The notes under the pieces are model-generated. The model saw only the letters and a program-made list of their open reading frames with translations. It searched no databases and was not told the origin of the DNA. Shown piece by piece: positions 325 to 8,248 of a stretch of DNA of 8,248 nucleotides (its first letter is position 1; each line of letters begins with the position of its first letter). A program made the translations under genes and the position numbers. This stretch comes from a virus. Its lineage: Duplodnaviria > Heunggongvirae > Uroviricota > Caudoviricetes. Where the stretch lies: IMG/VR virus record IMGVR_UViG_2671180849_000023; one strand, 5' to 3'.

Positions 325-378
325 TTCCTGATTATTTAACTTTTATTCGCTTTCAGGATAAACGAAATCTGATATACA

Positions 379-2196
<1,818 letters not shown>

Positions 2197-2199
2197 TCC

Positions 2200-2943
2200 A
2201 TGCATCGTATAGACACGAAAACCGCGCAGAAGGATAAGTTCGGCGCGGGTAAGAACGGTTTTACCCGTGGTAACCCCCAGACCGGCACACCTGCCACCGA
2301 TCTGGATGATGACTACTTTGACATGTTGCAGGAAGAACTCTGCAGCGTGGTGGAGGCATCCGGTGCCAGCCTGGAGAAGGGGCGGCATGACCAGCTGCTT
2401 ACCGCGCTTCGTGCGCTGCTGTTAAGCCGCAAGAATCCGTTTGGCGATATCAAATCTGATGGCACGGTGAAAACGGCTCTCGAAAACCTTGGTTTGGGAG
2501 AAGCGGCAAAACGAAATGTGGGCAACGGGGAAAACCAAATCCCTGATATGTCTTTCTGGACGGTTACTGGTGGCAATGGAAATTTTGTGATTCGTCAACC
2601 TGACGGGCTAATCATTCAGATGGTTACTGTAAGTATAAGCGGTCCAGTGGCGATGAATGGAATGACTGATAATGCTTATGCCATTACAGGTTCTAATAAG
2701 TCTTATATTGCCACAGCCACATTGCCCTTTGTATTTCCTAATAAGGTGCTGGGCGTTATCCCTCTGGTATCAACAACAGCTTATGGTGGTGTATCCAGTA
2801 ATATTACAGGTTCATACGCGACGGCGGTTTGTTCTTTTGCCGCTGTCAGGGGGAATAATACGATTGTGTTCAAAGTCGACAAACCACTGAATGCAGCCTT
2901 TCCTTCAGATACCAGCGTCTCAGCGTTAATCATTGGACGGTAA
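2200..2943 (+). CDS. Phage tail fibre protein in the currently expressed orientation (constant N-terminal domain to about 2502, then a variable C-terminal domain inside the invertible segment)
   Basis: ATG 2200 with GGAG Shine-Dalgarno 8 nt upstream. N-terminus [47 protein letters not shown] is the conserved N-terminal motif of Mu/P1/P2/e14-type tail fibres. The crossover site 2468..2503 lies in-frame, encoding …[11 protein letters not shown]…. Confidence 0.8.
2468..2503. repeat. Left inversion crossover site (pix/gix/hix-like), 36-bp perfect inverted repeat with 26-bp core at 2477..2502
   Basis: tgaaaacggctctcgaaaaccttggtttgggagaag is the exact reverse complement of 4421..4456. The 26-bp core ctctcgaaaaccttggtttgggagaa is an imperfect palindrome with central TT, resembling Hin/Gin/Pin recombination sites as I recall them. 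Confidence 0.8.
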
Positions 2944-2945
2944 GA

Positions 2946-3389
2946 ATGAACTCAGTATTCTTTTCACCCGCAAGTAAAAGTTTTTATCTGCAAGAATTGT
3001 TTCCAGAATATGAGGATGCGGGAACGCTTCCTGATGATGTTATTGAAATTACCAGAGAAACATATGAGCAATTTCTTGGGCTGCATCCAGAAGGGAAAGA
3101 AATTGGCGCTGACAGTTCAGGACGGCCAATATGGATTAATTCCCCGCCGCCTTCAAAAGAGGATGAGATGCTGGCGGCTGAAATGAAAAAGATATCTTTG
3201 GTTTCAGAAGTCAATACCTACATCAATACCCATCAGTGGCCTGGCAAAGCTGCTATTGGTCGTCTGAAAGGTTACGAGCTGGAACAATATAATTTATGGC
3301 TGGATTATCTGGACGCACTGGAACTGGTTGATACCTCCAGTGCTCCAGATATTGAATGGCCTACGCCTCCGGTAGTTCAGGCCAGATGA
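2946..3389 (+). CDS. Tail fibre assembly chaperone (Tfa) paired with the expressed fibre variant
   Basis: ATG 2946 lies 2 nt after the fibre stop, consistent with translational coupling. 147 aa, with the C-terminal motif …LDYLDALELVDTSSAPDIEWPTPP typical of Tfa proteins. Confidence 0.7.
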   Translation: MNSVFFSPASKSFYLQELFPEYEDAGTLPDDVIEITRETYEQFLGLHPEGKEIGADSSGRPIWINSPPPSKEDEMLAAEMKKISLVSEVNTYINTHQWPGKAAIGRLKGYELEQYNLWLDYLDALELVDTSSAPDIEWPTPPVVQAR

Positions 3390-3966
3390 CATCCGGCGCG
3401 GTGCTGGTATCTGTTGCAGTCACCGCGTCAATGTAATCCAGCACAGCGTTAAGCCGGGTTGTTTCTGCCTGCGTCAGCTTCCGCCCGGCCTGCAATTTCA
3501 GCTGAATCAGACTAATGGAAGCCATAGCAGCATCAATCAGTGACTGGCGCCGTACTTCTGCCGCGTCTACTGCGGCGTTATGCTGTGCCTCAGTATCGGT
3601 CACCCATTTCTCACCATCCCATTTATCGTATGACGTTAACGGGGCGATAGTGGTTGTATTTTCAGGGTAATCACCCGGAAGTGTGATTTCTTTTGATTCT
3701 CCTGTTTCGGTGCTATAGACGATTTCACCGCGATGGTCTGGCACATATTCCCATGAGTTAAAATCTGCAGAACGGCAAATTGCATAACCAGCTTTATATG
3801 AGCCAGGAGCATCTAAACAGGAACATGCCGGGATACCAACACCCACAGCAAGATATTCAGTTGATGTGGAAATATATTCCCGTGTTTCACCATCATAATT
3901 ATAAACGGTAATGTCTCCGGCCTTTGTGGCGATGAGTTCATTATTTAATACAGCTTTACTTATCAT
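3361..3966 (-). CDS. Alternative tail fibre assembly chaperone (Tfa') for the silent fibre variant
   Basis: 201 aa on the minus strand, with C-terminal …LDYIDAVTATDTSTAPDVIWPELPEA paralleling the plus-strand Tfa. Its ATG overlaps the upstream cassette stop in an ATGA arrangement. It lies inside the invertible segment. Confidence 0.75.
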   Translation of the reverse strand: MISKAVLNNELIATKAGDITVYNYDGETREYISTSTEYLAVGVGIPACSCLDAPGSYKAGYAICRSADFNSWEYVPDHRGEIVYSTETGESKEITLPGDYPENTTTIAPLTSYDKWDGEKWVTDTEAQHNAAVDAAEVRRQSLIDAAMASISLIQLKLQAGRKLTQAETTRLNAVLDYIDAVTATDTSTAPDVIWPELPEA

Positions 3967-4475
3967 GCAGCCCTCACAATATAATTAAAGGCGATGTTAC
4001 GGGAGCGGGTTTCAGATGCTGTGCGAACTGAGCGAGATGCGTCGAATGTCCAGTTATAAGCGCCATAACCCTCAATAATTGCGGCTTCCTTTAGACCTGT
4101 AGATAATACTTGCCCATGTTGACTAAATGGCCCTGAACTAAGTACGTCTCTAAAAAGCTGGGTACGCCCAAAAGAACCAACAATATTCTGAATTGCATCA
4201 TTCTGTGCAGATAATAAGTTACGACCAGAGTCAATCCCGCGCCCATCATCCCAGCCACGAATAAATTCACCGCGTAAATCTGGTAATTTTAATGTTGGGT
4301 AAGCCTTTGCCAGATTTGGGTACTTTTCAGAAGAAAATACTGCTCCGTTACATTTTAGCCACCCCGTTGGCGGAGTGGCGGAAGGCCACGGAACAGGCAC
4401 ACCAACGGGTAATGCCGAACCTTCTCCCAAACCAAGGTTTTCGAGAGCCGTTTTCAAACGAGCAAATGGCATCAT
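3963..4475 (-). CDS. Alternative tail-fibre C-terminal variable (receptor-binding) cassette, silent orientation; becomes fused to the constant N-terminus at 2200 after inversion
   Basis: The minus-strand ORF begins [18 protein letters not shown]…, so the crossover-site-encoded [11 protein letters not shown] lies at its N-terminus. The rest (153 aa) differs from the plus-strand variable domain. The ATG at 4475 lies outside the right crossover site and may be fortuitous. Confidence 0.65.
   Translation of the reverse strand: MMPFARLKTALENLGLGEGSALPVGVPVPWPSATPPTGWLKCNGAVFSSEKYPNLAKAYPTLKLPDLRGEFIRGWDDGRGIDSGRNLLSAQNDAIQNIVGSFGRTQLFRDVLSSGPFSQHGQVLSTGLKEAAIIEGYGAYNWTFDASRSVRTASETRSRNIAFNYIVRAA
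4421..4456. repeat. Right inversion crossover site, 36-bp perfect inverted repeat with 26-bp core at 4422..4447
   Basis: cttctcccaaaccaaggttttcgagagccgttttca; exact reverse complement of 2468..2503. Lies 46 bp upstream of the invertase start. Confidence 0.8.
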
Positions 4476-4501: not shown

Positions 4502-5056
4502 ATGCTTATTGGCTATGTACGTGTGTCAACAAATGACCAGAACACAGATCTACAACGTAATGCGCTGAACTGTGCAGGATGCGAGCTGATTTTTGAAGAC
4601 AAGATAAGCGGTACAAAGTCCGAAAGGCCGGGACTGAAAAAACTGCTCAGGACATTATCGGCAGGTGACACGCTGGTGGTCTGGAAACTGGACCGGCTGG
4701 GGCGCAGTATGCGGCATCTTGTCGTGCTGGTGGAGGAGTTGCGCGAACGAGGCATCAACTTTCGTAGTCTGACGGATTCAATTGATACCAGTACCCCAAT
4801 GGGGCGCTTTTTCTTTCATGTGATGGGGGCCCTGGCTGAAATGGAACGAGAACTGATTGTTGAACGAACAAAAGCTGGACTGGAAGCTGCTCGCGCACAG
4901 GGACGAATTGGTGGACGTCGTCCCAAACTTACACCAGAACAATGGGCACAAGCCGGACGATTAATTGCATCAGGAGTTCCGCGCCAGAAAGTTGCGATTA
5001 TCTATGATGTTGGCGTATCGACTTTGTATCAGAGGTTTCCGGCAGGAGATAAATAA
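4502..5056 (+). CDS. pin: Serine DNA invertase of the Hin/Gin/Pin/Cin family
   Basis: 185 aa from ATG 4502, with GGGAG Shine-Dalgarno 7 nt upstream. MLIGYVRVSTNDQNTDLQRNAL… carries the catalytic serine motif VRVSTNDQ, and …DTLVVWKLDRLGRSMRHL…SLTDSIDTSTPMGRFFFHVMGALAEMERELIVERT…GRIGGRRPKL…VSTLYQRFP follows Hin/Pin closely. The track ORF extends upstream to 4292, but the conserved N-terminus sets the start at 4502. Confidence 0.85.
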   Translation: MLIGYVRVSTNDQNTDLQRNALNCAGCELIFEDKISGTKSERPGLKKLLRTLSAGDTLVVWKLDRLGRSMRHLVVLVEELRERGINFRSLTDSIDTSTPMGRFFFHVMGALAEMERELIVERTKAGLEAARAQGRIGGRRPKLTPEQWAQAGRLIASGVPRQKVAIIYDVGVSTLYQRFPAGDK

Positions 5057-5254: not shown

Positions 5255-5467
5255 ATGCCAAGAAAAACGCTAGAAAATTTGGTAAATGTTGCACGTCAGA
5301 CTCAGGAAATAGCGGATAAGAGAAGCCGTTTTTTCGGGTATCTTGAACAGCATGGCTTGAAGAGGAATGAGGATAGTGCTCACCTTTTTGCTATGCATTT
5401 ACGGTTGCAACACAATGAAAGAGATAATCTTGTCCATGAACTGATGTCCGGATTACATCATAAATAG
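5255..5467 (+). CDS. Hypothetical small protein (70 aa), no recognisable family
   Basis: ATG 5255 preceded by a strong Shine-Dalgarno AGGAGG (5242..5247, 7-nt spacing). AT-rich, convergent with the 114-aa/343-aa operon. Function unknown. Confidence 0.5.
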   Translation: MPRKTLENLVNVARQTQEIADKRSRFFGYLEQHGLKRNEDSAHLFAMHLRLQHNERDNLVHELMSGLHHK

Positions 5468-5501
5468 TGCATCATTCGAGCAAGAATATTATAAGACAAT
5501 A

Positions 5502-5524
5502 AACCAGCCAAAAACTGGCTGGTT
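5502..5524. terminator. Possible bidirectional hairpin terminator between convergent genes
   Basis: Stem CCAGCC (5504..5509), loop aaaaact, stem GGCTGG (5517..5522). On the minus strand it is followed by a T-rich run (TTTATTGTCTTAT); the plus-strand U-tract is weak. Confidence 0.35.
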
Positions 5525-5551
5525 GAACGTTAACTTTTTGAATTTAATCAA

Positions 5552-5896
5552 TTAACTTTGGTGTATGTCTTGGTAAGTCTCATCCGTCAGAGCCAATTTC
5601 ATGCAAATATCATCGTTAAGACTGACAATATCTTCGATCAGTTTATTGATCTCGAAATCGTTAAGTTTTGATACTGTTGCTTGAACTCGCCCCTCATCGC
5701 CAGTGGCATCAAACTTAGTCAGTTCCTTACATAATTCATCGAACCTGCTTTGTAAGGCATTTGGAATATCATCGGCTGTTTTAAGATGCCCAAGGCTAAA
5801 AACATACGAATTAATCAAGCGTTCTTGAATACTTCCATGGCCCGCAAGAGTAAGTACTGCAGTATGAAATTTTTCATGTGCATACTTTAAGGACAT
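5552..5896 (-). CDS. Hypothetical protein (114 aa), second gene of the cargo operon, no recognisable family
   Basis: ATG 5896 with GGAG Shine-Dalgarno at 5904..5907 (7-nt spacing), 51 nt downstream of the 343-aa gene on the same strand. AT-rich. No motif I can assign. Confidence 0.6.
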   Translation of the reverse strand: MSLKYAHEKFHTAVLTLAGHGSIQERLINSYVFSLGHLKTADDIPNALQSRFDELCKELTKFDATGDEGRVQATVSKLNDFEINKLIEDIVSLNDDICMKLALTDETYQDIHQS

Positions 5897-5947
5897 ATCT
5901 GGTCTCCGTGACTTATAACCTCAACCGACATAAATGGGGTTAAGTGA

Positions 5948-6979
5948 TTATTCTGAAACAATAGTGTTGAACTGACCTATAGAAACAGCACCCTTTTCAA
6001 TTACCTCTAAGTAACTGATTTTAATATGAGAGTTGTTTGACAAAGCGTCAACAATAGCTGTCAACTCATCTTGGGTGATAACATCAGCTGAAGCTTTGAT
6101 TGTGAAGCATTCGTCATTAGAGACCCTAACAACGTTAATATTAATATCCTGATTTGTTGGCCCTGTTCTGGTTACACCTTTGATGGAAAATATATCAGTT
6201 CGTTCTTTACGTTCTCTATCTACAGATTGTCGGCTGTTGTAGGTATTTAGGTCTTGTCGTGTTAGTTTCTCATTTCCTAAAGTCACGGTTTCGACAGTAG
6301 GATCAGCAGCTAATTGCTTCACTAAAGCACTTTTACCTGCTTGTCCGTGACTAGTAACTTTATCGCTAATCGCTGATTTCCCATAGATTTTATAATCTAA
6401 TGTTGCTTCTATGGCTTTGTTTATGCCATCGGATGTGGTTTTTGCAATTTCAACCTGCCGATCAGTTGCATGTCTTTCTGTTACGGCATTTTCTGAAATG
6501 TAGTGATAACCACATGTGCTGGCCGCGCCAACCATTGTGATTATAACAAGCATTTTCTGCCAGCCGTTCAGTCCAGACATAGTATCTCGCAAAAAATCAG
6601 TTACTGCGTTGATGATCTTGTCAGTGGTGCCTTCCGCATCACTAGAACCTTCGCTAATTTTAAAATTTATATCAAGTCGTTGCTTGTCTTCATTAGTCAA
6701 GCGTTGAAGATTCTGCGATCCGTATCGTATGGTTGCAAACGCCCGCTGTATCTCCTCGTTGAGCATTGACATACCAAACAACATTGCTGATGTAATTGAT
6801 GAATGATACCGCTCTCCTTTTACATTTATGTCTAAGGATGGCCAGCCTGCAAACTTTACGTTAGGGAAAATAAACTCTTTAGAATCAAGCCCCTCTCGGG
6901 CTTTCATTTCTTCCAGAAAGTTTAGAAAATCATCTTCACTACGGATCAGAAAATCAATCGAATCCACAGTAGCTTCCAT
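5948..6979 (-). CDS. Hypothetical protein (343 aa), first gene of the cargo operon, with one hydrophobic segment (aa 143..161); no recognisable family
   Basis: ATG 6979 with AAGGA Shine-Dalgarno 7 nt upstream; a long uninterrupted ORF. GC counted at 20/60 in each of 5941..6000 and 6001..6060, against 38/60 in smpB (7981..8040). Confidence 0.7.
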   Translation of the reverse strand: MEATVDSIDFLIRSEDDFLNFLEEMKAREGLDSKEFIFPNVKFAGWPSLDINVKGERYHSSITSAMLFGMSMLNEEIQRAFATIRYGSQNLQRLTNEDKQRLDINFKISEGSSDAEGTTDKIINAVTDFLRDTMSGLNGWQKMLVIITMVGAASTCGYHYISENAVTERHATDRQVEIAKTTSDGINKAIEATLDYKIYGKSAISDKVTSHGQAGKSALVKQLAADPTVETVTLGNEKLTRQDLNTYNSRQSVDRERKERTDIFSIKGVTRTGPTNQDININVVRVSNDECFTIKASADVITQDELTAIVDALSNNSHIKISYLEVIEKGAVSIGQFNTIVSE

Positions 6980-7034
6980 ATGAATATCCTTATTAAATTC
7001 TCATTCGGTTACTGTTTATTGTTGACTGATCAAT

Positions 7035-7063
7035 AAAAAAGCCCGCAATTTGCGGGCTTCTTT
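7035..7063 (-). terminator. Rho-independent terminator downstream of ssrA (minus-strand orientation)
   Basis: Stem GCCCGCA (7041..7047), loop att, stem TGCGGGC (7051..7057). On the minus strand the hairpin is followed by TTTTTTATTG; on the plus strand by the weaker TTCTTTC. Confidence 0.55.
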
Positions 7064-7188
7064 CACACTTGAGAGCCGCGGCTCCTTTGCGTATCCTTTT
7101 TTGTCTCCTCACCGTCTGGTCGGTGTCCTGCTGAGACTGCTAACTTCCTGTTTTTGTTGGTGTTGTCCTTACACCGTCCAATCATGAT

Positions 7189-7551
7189 TGGTGGAGCTGG
7201 CGGGAGTTGAACCCGCGTCCGAAATTCCTACATCCTCGGTACTACATGCTTAGTCAGTCTTTACATTCGCTTGCCAGCTGCGGACGGACACGCCACTAAC
7301 AAACTAGCCTGATTAAGTTTTAACGCTTCAACCCCAGGCAGGGCTTCCACGCGATCTCTTTTGGGTTTGACCTCTCTTGATCCCCGTCCTAAGAGCGGAG
7401 GCTAGGGAGAGAGGGCTCTAAGCAGGTTATTAAGCTGCTAAAGCGTAGTTTTCGTCGTTTGCGACTATTTTTTGCGGCTTTTTACGAGGCCAACCGCCCC
7501 TCGGCATGCACCTTGGGTTTCGCAAATCCCGTCGAATCCAGAATCAGCCCC
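7189..7551 (-). ncRNA. ssrA: tmRNA (transfer-messenger RNA, 10Sa RNA), 363 nt
   Basis: Reverse complement begins GGGGCTGATTCTGGATTCGACGGG and ends …GGGTTCAACTCCCGCCAGCTCCACCA (tRNA-like acceptor/T-arm with encoded CCA). The internal tag reading frame is at 7430..7462. Confidence 0.95.
7430..7462 (-). other. tmRNA tag-peptide reading frame (resume codon GCA through stop): ANDENYALAA*
   Basis: Minus-strand codons GCA AAC GAC GAA AAC TAC GCT TTA GCA GCT TAA, read directly from the sequence. This is the proteolysis tag of E. coli and close relatives. Confidence 0.9.
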
Positions 7552-7765: not shown

Positions 7766-8248
7766 TTAACGGTGGGCGTTTTTCATGATACGTGCTTTAT
7801 CCACCTGCCATTCGCGTTCTTTGATATCTGAACGTTTATCGTGCTGTTTTTTACCTTTGGCGACGCCGATTTTCACTTTGCACCAGGCATTTTTCCAGTA
7901 CAGGGAGAGCGCCACTACGGTATAGCCTTCTCGATTGACGCGACCGTACAATGAGTCCAGTTCGCGCTGGTTGAGAAGTAACTTGCGGGTACGGGTAGGA
8001 TCGCACACCACATGCGTGGAGGCCACGGCCATTGGCGTGATGTTAGCGCCAAACAGAAATGCCTCTCCGTCACGCAGAAGGACGTAGCTGTCGCTGATAT
8101 TGGCTTTTCCTGCGCGCAGGGATTTAACCTCCCAGCCTTGCAGGGCAAGTCCCGCTTCGAACTCTTCTTCGATAAAGTATTCGTGACGGGCGCGCTTGTT
8201 AAGCGCGATGGTCGCTGAACCAGGTTTATGTGCTTTTTTCTTCGTCAT
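7766..8248 (-). CDS. smpB: SsrA-binding protein SmpB (160 aa, complete)
   Basis: ATG at the window edge (8248..8246), stop at 7766. [56 protein letters not shown]… is the canonical SmpB sequence, upstream of and co-oriented with ssrA as in E. coli. Confidence 0.95.

Follow-up and report, generated by a model that had tools for sequence, protein, structure and literature searches.

Does a tail-fibre switch that has lost its phage still turn, and what would it be good for? This question is raised by a stretch of 8,248 nucleotides (the window), a short-read draft contig of Escherichia coli (GCA_001284165.2, CYDZ01000042.1). A first-pass annotation had noticed in it an apparently intact invertible fibre segment and had read the perfect 36-bp inverted repeats around this segment as a hint of ongoing inversion or selection. 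We assign the locus, with a probability of roughly 90%, to the canonical Pin/pix inversion modules of the Gin/Cin/Hin/Pin family, here in an e14/SfV-type prophage at ssrA. It is a tail-fibre switch with an intact invertase inside a decayed prophage remnant (Table 1). Most likely, the remnant switch is a cheap, self-contained relic that is still running and does not serve a virion of the locus itself.

Table 1. Features of the prophage remnant and its surroundings, in coordinates of the window.
Feature	Position	Strand	Remarks
IS3-family insertion sequence truncating the prophage	378..1637	-	OrfA 1253-1600, OrfB 387-1133; 27-nt terminal inverted repeats
5'-truncated ymfQ / Mu gp48-like baseplate wedge gene	1638..2196	+	Pfam PF10076 E=1e-26; first 7-9 codons missing
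stf, current configuration: constant N-terminal part (2200 to ~2488) and tip A	2200..2943	+	
pixL, 26-bp recombination site	2477..2502	.	CTCTCGAAAACC TT GGTTTGGGAGAA; predicted crossover dinucleotide 2489-2490
Tail-fibre assembly chaperone for tip A, 147 aa	2946..3389	+	Pfam Caudo_TAP E=6e-27
TfaE-like tail-fibre assembly chaperone for tip B, 201 aa	3361..3966	-	Pfam Caudo_TAP E=1e-31; annotated tfaE in relatives
Silent alternative tip B, phage tail collar domain, StfE equivalent	3963..4475	-	Pfam Collar E=2e-15
pixR as written in this contig	4422..4447	.	predicted crossover dinucleotide 4434-4435
Private 21-bp in-register patch	4436..4456	.	reverse complement of 2468-2488, replaces native CGTTTATGAAAATGCAGAAAT
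pin, serine DNA invertase, 184 aa, intact	4502..5056	+	PinE / Gin similarity
Putative recombinational enhancer equivalent, pin nt 19-90	4520..4591	.	G-N13-C Fis-type cores 4523-4537, 4572-4586
Low-GC cargo, three ORFs: 70 aa (+), 114 aa (-), 343 aa (-)	5255..6979	.	between pin and the ssrA-proximal element end
ssrA (tmRNA), chromosomal anchor and attachment locus of the element	7189..7551	-	ARAGORN; RefSeq annotation in relatives

Between the insertion sequence and ssrA only the truncated ymfQ, stf, two tfa genes, the alternative tip, pin and the cargo are left, which bears out the earlier view that the rest of the phage is gone and that the baseplate-like gene upstream was cut by an IS. All that once lay upstream of ymfQ appears to have been lost to the IS3-family element, whose far side adjoins an ACP-malonyltransferase gene, perhaps through an IS-mediated inversion. 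The genomes CD45, 602687 and PS1Thumoskin9 share the IS/ymfQ junction. Full-length ymfQ (585 bp) is present in NWU_3, EC1515 and K-12, and IS-free genomes match the window from position 1633 on. Intact relatives at ssrA combine an HK97-type head with a Mu-type contractile tail, and in the SfV / SfIV-type myovirus-tailed lambdoid phages of Shigella and E. coli the ymfQ-stf region is 94-96% identical. SfV itself matches just the first 913 bp of the query, and in this search no invertible module was detected at that position. A role as a tailocin, which had been offered as one reason for the retention of the switch, does not fit: the headless make-up of sheath, tube, tape-measure, baseplate and lysis cassette was not found, and the sheath, tube and baseplate genes are absent from the locus.

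The arrangement of the fibre genes is that of a host-range switch (Sc + Sv/Sv' + U/U'), with the constant 5' part outside the segment and the convergent 3' parts together with their chaperones inside. Both the ORFs and the Pfam matches confirm the convergent alternative tips, each with its own chaperone, that had been described within the repeats. The first 106 amino acids of stf are 97% identical to K-12 StfP, whereas tip A is unrelated to StfP past this residue and shows a weak Pfam Gp53-like_C match together with PHROG tail-fibre matches. The two chaperone genes overlap by 29 nt, and a short fixed leader precedes tip B. When the segment was flipped in silico, an intact, in-frame fibre of 253 amino acids resulted, with tip B as its 3' end, in comparison to 247 amino acids in the present orientation. 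No ORF of the module is broken in either orientation, and the flipped in-frame fusion is also found in real genomes.

The neighbouring invertase had been called intact-looking, and we found no inactivating change in it. Catalytic Ser9 and the DRLGR motif are both present, Pfam detects the Resolvase (E=4e-51) and HTH_7 (E=6e-13) domains, and the protein aligns over its full length with the Mu Gin structures 3UJ3/4M6F (E=1e-93), with YVRVSTNDQ and KLDRLGRS conserved. It is identical to K-12 PinE at 180 of the 184 positions (98%), and exactly this protein occurs on 993 contigs. The longer invertase ORF from 4292 in the first-pass annotation is an upstream extension of the real gene, which starts at the ATG at 4502.

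The 26-bp core site is present in exactly two copies in the window (0 expected, 200 shuffles). pixL is identical to that of e14, and the 12-2-12 layout is the one of Mu gix and of the annotated P1 cix sites and crossover. The core dinucleotides of both sites match (TT/AA), and the native pixR of the relatives keeps the TT core too. Together with the serine recombinase architecture and an inversion of the segment observed at the level of the lineage, this inverted site pair places the system in the Din family. A shufflon or multiple-inversion system of the type of Min of p15B or Rci does not match the locus, in which exactly two sites are seen even when 3 mismatches are allowed.

Within the 5' end of pin, the region that corresponds in position to the annotated enhancer of P1 cin (cin nt 19-90) is 70/72 identical to e14 pinE and carries two putative Fis-type cores, placed as they are in gin; this region is also coding. 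The two comparisons that the first-pass annotation had pointed to, with the Fis-bound enhancers and with e14 pin/pix, are both positive, the former at the level of sequence. The candidate enhancer lies ~95 bp from the centre of pixR. In the Hin/hix system of Salmonella, which shares the invertase family and, at the level of sequence, the Fis-enhancer geometry with a TAATG motif between the cores, the corresponding distance is ~100 bp, and the proximal Fis core is ~95-100 bp away from the nearby site in both systems (PMC3798978).

In the mechanism that we propose, Pin dimers would bind the two inverted 26-bp pix sites and, together with Fis on the enhancer inside the pin 5' end, would assemble an invertasome on supercoiled DNA. 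Both sites would then be cut at the central TT/AA dinucleotide (2489-2490 and 4434-4435), and a 180-degree rotation of one half followed by religation would leave ~1.95 kb inverted. The constant 5' part of stf would in this way be joined either to tip A (gp53-like, with the 147-aa chaperone) or to tip B (collar, with the TfaE-like chaperone). Judged by its homology, the local pin copy is the probable catalyst of the inversion, and the reaction should depend on Fis.

The segment has inverted recently in this lineage, since near-identical complete genomes differ only by its inversion. CD45 and 602687, two complete genomes with the same IS3-truncated remnant, have opposite orientations, with flanks that are 100% and 99.98% identical. 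Likewise, the segment is inverted between EC1515 and EC974 with 1-2 mismatches across 28.7 kb of flank. In a census using the chaperone pair, pin and the cargo as queries, the module was located at ssrA in ~22 of 5426 complete genomes, ~10 of them in the orientation of the window and ~12 flipped. As the tips vary, an earlier census with the exact tip alleles of the window yielded no more than 9 versus 1 genomes. The hint of ongoing inversion was therefore well founded, as the opposite orientations in the two genome pairs speak for recent or ongoing inversion, in the lineage rather than in the isolate's own culture.

It is very improbable that the switch is frozen and that the orientation differences go back to assembly errors or RecA-mediated events. 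The short-read drafts of this clone are indeed unreliable at the locus, and CD45, a sister genome, harbours in another prophage a second pinE and a second invertible segment that is near-identical; this other prophage is complete-looking, its fibre constant part is 96% identical and its chaperones are the same proteins. A second e14-like element was also seen in the clone-mate draft CYDJ. Orientation differences among short-read sister drafts cannot be trusted, and we rejected the chimeric sister drafts as proof of a mixed-orientation culture, since two near-identical segments could give the same assembly graph. However, three independent pairs or sets of complete genomes differ cleanly at the pix cores, and the 15-16 bp of shared core are too short for efficient RecA recombination. 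Moreover, identical modules flip in K-12 culture, with e14 at a ratio of ~1:1 in MG1655 (PMC4272514).

The second pinE of CD45, which adjoins the near-identical segment, brings up the question of whether the local pin is inactive at its own segment and inversion is catalysed in trans by the Pin of a second e14/SfV-type prophage or by PinQ/PinR-type enzymes. The P segment of e14 is inverted by PinE, PinQ and PinR, Din-family invertases cross-complement, and PinQ/PinR were reported to be dominant for e14 inversion in K-12 (PMC12529663); according to literature cited there, PinE is interchangeable with Gin, Hin and Cin and requires supercoiling. We regard catalysis in trans as a tentative and doubtful alternative. 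It is countered by the undamaged local Pin with its close identity to PinE and its wide occurrence in exactly this form, and by the position of the putative enhancer in cis close to pixR. An enhancer in cis would still belong to the same mechanism. Catalysis by the local pin is the reading that we prefer.

The perfect repeat itself is a different matter. In the window as given, the arms (2468-2503 and 4421-4456) comprise 36 nt, are 100% complementary and lie 1917 nt apart, exactly as first described, but their perfection is private to this one draft contig. At least 14 independent relatives, clone-mates among them, have CGTTTATGAAAATGCAGAAAT as the outer 21 bp of the right arm, and their arms are perfectly identical over just 15-16 bp. 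The patch that creates the 36-bp repeat corresponds to GGTTTTCGAGAGCCGTTTTCA, or ...CCAAACCAAGGTTTTCGAGAGCCGTTTTCA, joined to AACGAGC. We detected the patch in none of the relatives, clone-mates, 5426 complete E. coli genomes, GTDB representatives and metagenome contigs, the last two of which were searched for the patch junction with 44-mer and 24-mer queries. The exact 170-aa tip protein is not on record, and a 169-aa form is recorded.

These findings indicate that the perfect repeat probably arose when one draft was misassembled; failing that, it would be a conversion event private to the isolate. The latter would mean that gene conversion or a template switch copied 21 bp of the outer arm of pixL onto pixR, and we consider such a real patch unlikely. 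It is exactly in register, reproduces the other arm without a mismatch and leaves the tip ORF open. One of its ends lies inside the 15-bp shared core, as expected for a template switch primed there, and the draft contig has no Ns at that point. Yet the clone-mate CYDA, with no other difference over 6.5 kb, lacks the patch, and so do all further assemblies and collections that we searched. Microhomology, also for a template switch, is missing at the outer boundary. In addition, the same contig has a second odd cluster, three SNPs in pin, and sister drafts of the same project are demonstrably misassembled here, with chimeric sequences and single-N joins.

Other origins of the patch were rejected. 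A second e14/SfV-type prophage as the source of the patch or of the three odd pin SNPs is in conflict with copy 2 of CD45, which has a native pixR and 26 differences in pin. Displaced crossovers in two inversions would exchange the arms instead of duplicating one of them, and inter-element Pin recombination would change far more than 21 bp. As to assembler errors, De Bruijn paths make no k-mers without read support, whereas gap closing or consensus updating could do so. An attempted reconstruction of the exact assembler error leading to an in-register 21-bp patch found no specific route.

The perfect repeat plays no part in the mechanism, and for native e14-type sites 15-16 bp of identity are enough to flip well (PMC4272514, PMC12529663). 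The step from a perfect repeat to selection cannot be upheld, as none of the relatives or clone-mates has the repeat, which most likely goes back to an error of assembly; in a short-read draft, a perfect repeat is by itself no signature of selection. If the patch were true, the converted pixR would perhaps be a better Pin substrate. Synapsed or cleaved invertase sites could then undergo short-tract non-reciprocal homogenisation, a possible origin of long perfect repeats such as the 34 bp of Mu.

Selection could also act on the switch via a use for the host, either as a phase-variable anti-phage device or as a reservoir of fibre tips and chaperones for a co-resident prophage. In the first case, the short-leader chimeric tip protein of the flipped state, the equivalent of StfE2, would block phage receptors; in the second, an intact e14/SfV-type prophage in the same cell would be the beneficiary. 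For e14, Kirigo et al. (2025) described that P-segment inversion yields StfE2, which blocks T2 adsorption (PMC12529663). The open reading frames in either orientation, the matching fibre part and chaperones of the complete-looking prophage in CD45 and the survival of the module in at least eight assemblies of the IS-truncated lineage are in agreement with such a use. In contrast, tip A has no relationship to StfP beyond residue 106 and the T2 result is therefore not simply transferable. The remnant may express its fibre, but a simple consensus scan for a promoter upstream of stf gave nothing above chance. Furthermore, the lineage is young (0-2 mismatches per 8-10 kb), and persistence therefore needs no selection.

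The cargo points in the same direction. It is present in 46 of 5426 complete genomes versus ~22 with the switch, so that about half of the cargo-bearing genomes are without a recognisable switch, which argues against strong selection and also against the earlier suggestion that the switch is kept for the linked cargo. The ORFs of the cargo had zero matches in Pfam or PADLOC, and the 343-aa protein matches phrog_6191, a family of unknown function. Taken together, a use for the host appears rather improbable. The same holds for the joint proposition that the patch is real in the single isolate and/or that the remnant switch was domesticated as a phase-variable receptor-blocking device like e14 StfE2. 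The self-contained relic that is still running remains our preferred reading.

The closest known system is the P segment of e14 in K-12 (stfP-tfaP-tfaE-stfE-pinE). Gene order is shared (ymfQ-stf-tfa / tfaE-tip-pin), the similarity extends over Pin, the fibre constant part, pixL and the putative enhancer region at the values given above, and both loci belong to defective prophages that are known in two orientations. Nevertheless, the locus is an e14-like module in a different element and not e14 proper: e14 is integrated at icd and has mcrA 3' of pinE, whereas the present element adjoins ssrA/smpB and carries three unrelated ORFs of unknown function after pin. Unlike e14, it is truncated by an IS3-family element and has a different tip A allele, and its segment is longer (~1.95 versus 1.80 kb). 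Only in the present contig does pixR copy pixL perfectly; the native e14-type pixR differs in the outer half.

The G segment of Mu (Gin) and the C segment of P1 (Cin) share with the locus the 26-bp sites with a 2-bp crossover, the enhancer, here a putative one, within the first ~90 nt of the invertase gene, and a constant S N-terminus outside a segment that contains alternative tips and chaperones. Pin and Gin are ~78% identical, and Mu too has a long perfect repeat (34 bp). In contrast to the short fibre left here without its phage, the fibres of Mu and P1 are much longer, as are their segments (3-4.2 kb), and both phages are functional. Hin flips a promoter and sits in its own segment, whereas the present switch swaps the 3' end of a coding region and has pin outside the segment.

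Knowledge of Pin-type fibre switches in defective E. coli prophages goes back to the 1980s. A study from 2014 put numbers on the constant flipping of these switches in culture (PMC4272514), and one from 2025 claimed that they have an anti-phage role at the level of the host (PMC12529663). As a Pin-type module, the locus adds little biologically, since a working switch in a dead prophage and a possible host use are already published for e14. It shows that the e14-type module also occupies ssrA and that it inverted after the phage had been reduced to ~5.5 kb. The slot 3' of pin is a variable cargo position, which is occupied by mcrA, GmrSD, a GIY-YIG nuclease, UmuDC-like genes or the present three ORFs, and it may merit mining for defence genes.

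The window is E. coli DNA with a module from a textbook family. RefSeq annotates ymfQ, tail fibre, tfa, tfaE and pinE in its relatives, in the gene order of the cryptic K-12 prophage e14, and already labels the invertase gene pinE. In the sequence as given, a perfect 36-nt inverted repeat (2468-2503 and 4421-4456) encloses the segment, and its 26-bp core occurs exactly twice in the window, where chance predicts none. Flipping the segment in silico resulted in an intact fibre of 253 aa instead of 247 aa. The first-pass annotation, which had described the repeats, convergent tips with their chaperones, the invertase and an IS-cut gene, is therefore accurate for this sequence. At their 3' ends the two convergent chaperone genes share 29 nt (3361-3389), as with e14 tfaP/tfaE, and an imperfect 18-nt inverted repeat (3299-3316 and 3425-3442), conserved in K-12, spans the overlap.

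Features of the inversion module and its surroundings
Feature	Position (nt)	Strand
IS3-family element, in place of the 5' end of the Mu-gp48/YmfQ-like gene	378-1637	
stf fibre gene, 3' end inside the segment	2200-2943	+
Caudo_TAP chaperone	2946-3389	+
Second chaperone, converging on stf and the first chaperone	3361-3966	-
Collar-domain fibre tip, converging	3963-4475	-
pin (184-aa Resolvase + HTH_7 protein)	4502-5056	
Cargo ORF, low GC (about 37-38%)	5255-5467	+
Cargo ORF, 114 aa, low GC (about 37-38%)	5552-5896	-
Cargo ORF, 343 aa, low GC (about 37-38%)	5948-6979	-
tmRNA	7189-7551	-
smpB, last feature of the window	7766-8248	-

The comparison with e14 proposed earlier confirmed the relationship: Pin is identical to K-12 PinE at 180 of 184 residues, and the left site equals e14 pixL exactly. 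Pin also aligns end to end with Mu Gin structures, including the catalytic serine and the DRLGR motif. Fibre residues 1-106 are 97% identical to StfP; beyond that tip A, the current fibre C-terminus, is unrelated and differs from K-12's tip. Based on the pixL identity and the 12-2-12 layout shared with Mu gix and with P1 cix, for which the P1 record annotates the crossover, the predicted crossovers lie at 2489-2490 and 4434-4435. The P1 record also places the Cin enhancer at nt 19-90 of cin. The equivalent stretch of pin (4520-4591), a putative enhancer, is identical to pinE at 70 of 72 positions and contains two G-N13-C cores (nt 22-36 and 71-85), as in gin, with the proximal core about 95 bp from the centre of the right site, pixR. 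This matches the geometry of Hin, with a core-site distance of about 100 bp and TAATG between the cores (PMC3798978). At the sequence level, cores, position and identity agree with the enhancer that the earlier check had in view, but because the stretch also encodes protein, being conserved is no proof in itself that it acts as an enhancer. Given the near-identity to the studied systems, inversion would proceed through an invertasome, with crossover at the central dinucleotide and exchange of the fibre tips.

The perfection of the repeat, in which the first-pass annotation had seen a hint of ongoing inversion or selection, turned out to be private to one contig. In CD45, 602687, NWU_3, EC1515 and K-12 e14 the right site reads CTTCTCCCAAACCAA-CGTTTATGAAAATGCAGAAAT-AACGAGC, as it does in Logan, ENA and NCBI assemblies fetched via the fibre protein, and perfect arm-to-arm identity in those relatives is only 15-16 bp. 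In the window, these 21 bp (4436-4456; the patch) are instead an in-register, reverse-complement copy of 2468-2488, and the leader that the tip ORF encodes changes from the native MMPFARYFCIFINVGLGE to another 18-residue stretch. This variant occurs in no complete E. coli genome (best full-length match 90.9%), and a junction-spanning 44-mer and 24-mer gave zero matches in GTDB representative genomes and metagenome contigs.

The window sequence is a short-read draft contig (CYDZ01000042.1, GCA_001284165.2). Same-clone sister drafts, retrieved by the lineage-specific chaperone variant L96, all carry the native right site (CYDA, CYBL, CYDJ, CYEK and CXZN). The CYDA contig has the same length, and over 6.5 kb only three things set it apart from the window: the orientation, the patch with its 14 mismatches, and a cluster of three synonymous positions in pin. 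The other four contain impossible structures, in which pin or the constant fibre part flanks the segment twice, with single-N joins at these points. We rejected these chimeras as proof of a mixed culture, since short reads cannot phase the switch region: CD45 carries a second prophage with the same chaperones and tip. Taken together, we assign a probability of about 75% to the patch being an assembly, gap-closing or consensus artefact. The exact software route to such an artefact could not be reconstructed, which leaves some room for a real conversion private to this isolate, but the outer boundary of the patch is without microhomology and we regard a conversion as unlikely. Whether artefact or conversion, the perfect repeat is a non-native state and no evidence of selection. 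The chimeric clone-mates warn that invertible segments, especially if duplicated in the genome, are systematically misassembled in drafts.

At the three pin positions (4666, 4669 and 4696; third codon positions within 31 bp), the window differs from every clone-mate and sister genome and carries the alleles of K-12 pinE and the ssrA-locus pins of NWU_3, EC1515 and EC974. They stem either from conversion over a short tract or from mosaic assembly of paralogous pin copies; the second CD45 copy was ruled out as source, its pin differing at 26 positions.

For an orientation census, the conserved chaperone pair in either orientation was joined to a locus-specific anchor (pin and cargo). Among complete genomes, about 10 have the window orientation at ssrA and about 12 the opposite one. 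EC1515 and EC974 show 1-2 mismatches in 28.7 kb of flanks around an inverted 1.8-kb segment; the segment is likewise inverted between CD45 and 602687, both IS-truncated, with flanks 100% and 99.98% identical. NWU_1 and NWU_3/NWU_4, compared by orientation only, are opposite. Opposite orientations in near-clonal pairs mean that the segment has inverted after the IS truncation took place, in line with the earlier hint of ongoing inversion. This agrees with published e14 flipping: in MG1655 cultures grown from single colonies the two orientations coexist at about 1:1 (PMC4272514), and the P segment is inverted in 33% of 562 deposited genomes (PMC12529663).

EC1515 and EC974 harbour a complete-looking prophage with HK97 head and Mu-type tail at the same ssrA position, the closest phages being SfV/SfIV-like; that of NWU_3 is partly deleted. 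The lineage of the window has lost all that lay upstream of ymfQ to an IS3-family element, and what is left spans about 5.5 kb (ymfQ', stf, two chaperones, tip B, pin and three low-GC ORFs), with the identical IS/ymfQ junction in the complete genomes CD45, 602687 and PS1Thumoskin9. No sheath, tube or head genes are left at the remnant locus, and therefore it cannot make the tailocin considered earlier. Persistence of the switch needs no selection because the lineage is so young. A host role like that claimed for e14 StfE2 (PMC12529663) is possible, as is tip donation to a co-resident prophage; a consensus scan for a promoter upstream of stf gave nothing above chance.

The second CD45 prophage (4.29-4.32 Mb) is complete-looking and of e14/SfV type. 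Its two chaperone proteins and its short tip ORF are identical with those of the remnant; its segment lies in the opposite orientation, and it has its own pinE allele and the native right site. Inversion in trans and tip exchange between the two loci are therefore plausible. The 'full' NWU_3 prophage is defective: the small terminase gene runs straight into the tape-measure gene, and portal, capsid, sheath and tube genes are absent. Despite this, the switch flipped between NWU_1 and NWU_3/NWU_4. Its far end adjoins yghU/gss and not the genes usually found near ssrA, which points to another rearrangement.

Pfam and PADLOC searches of the three cargo ORFs gave no match, and the sole match of the 343-aa protein was phrog_6191, of unknown function. 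This slot, between pin and the ssrA end, holds mcrA in e14, and GmrSD, a LEM-3-like GIY-YIG nuclease, UmuD/UmuC-like genes, or DinI and an integrase in related elements. The slot appears to be a variable one for cargo or defence genes, making the 343/114-aa pair a candidate uncharacterised system. Of 5426 complete genomes, 46 contain the cargo block, and a switch is recognisable at ssrA in about half that number; so the switch does not keep the cargo, nor, as had been suggested, does the cargo keep the switch.

Earlier publications already cover the e14 version in a defective prophage, its inversion in cultured cells and a role at the level of the host; with its ssrA location, different tips and different cargo, the module is another instance and not a new kind. 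Its main value lies in the caution on repeats in draft assemblies and in the variable slot downstream of pin.

Left of the IS, positions 1-377 hold part of an ACP S-malonyltransferase gene, which in sister complete genomes lies about 2 Mb away, adjoining ycdU; CD45 has an identical copy of the IS3-family element at the ycdU site in inverted orientation. This junction, also present in CYDA, arose either when the IS mediated the inversion of a large part of the chromosome or when short reads were wrongly joined across the repeated IS. The roughly 160 bp downstream of ssrA (7029-7188) have matches in >4000 E. coli genomes, with identity of only about 88-93%, and include a GC-rich hairpin with a T-run behind it (AAAAAAGCCCGCAA/TTGCGGGCTTCTTT, 7035-7063). 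The stretch probably comprises the terminator of ssrA together with the boundary of the island or its attachment region.
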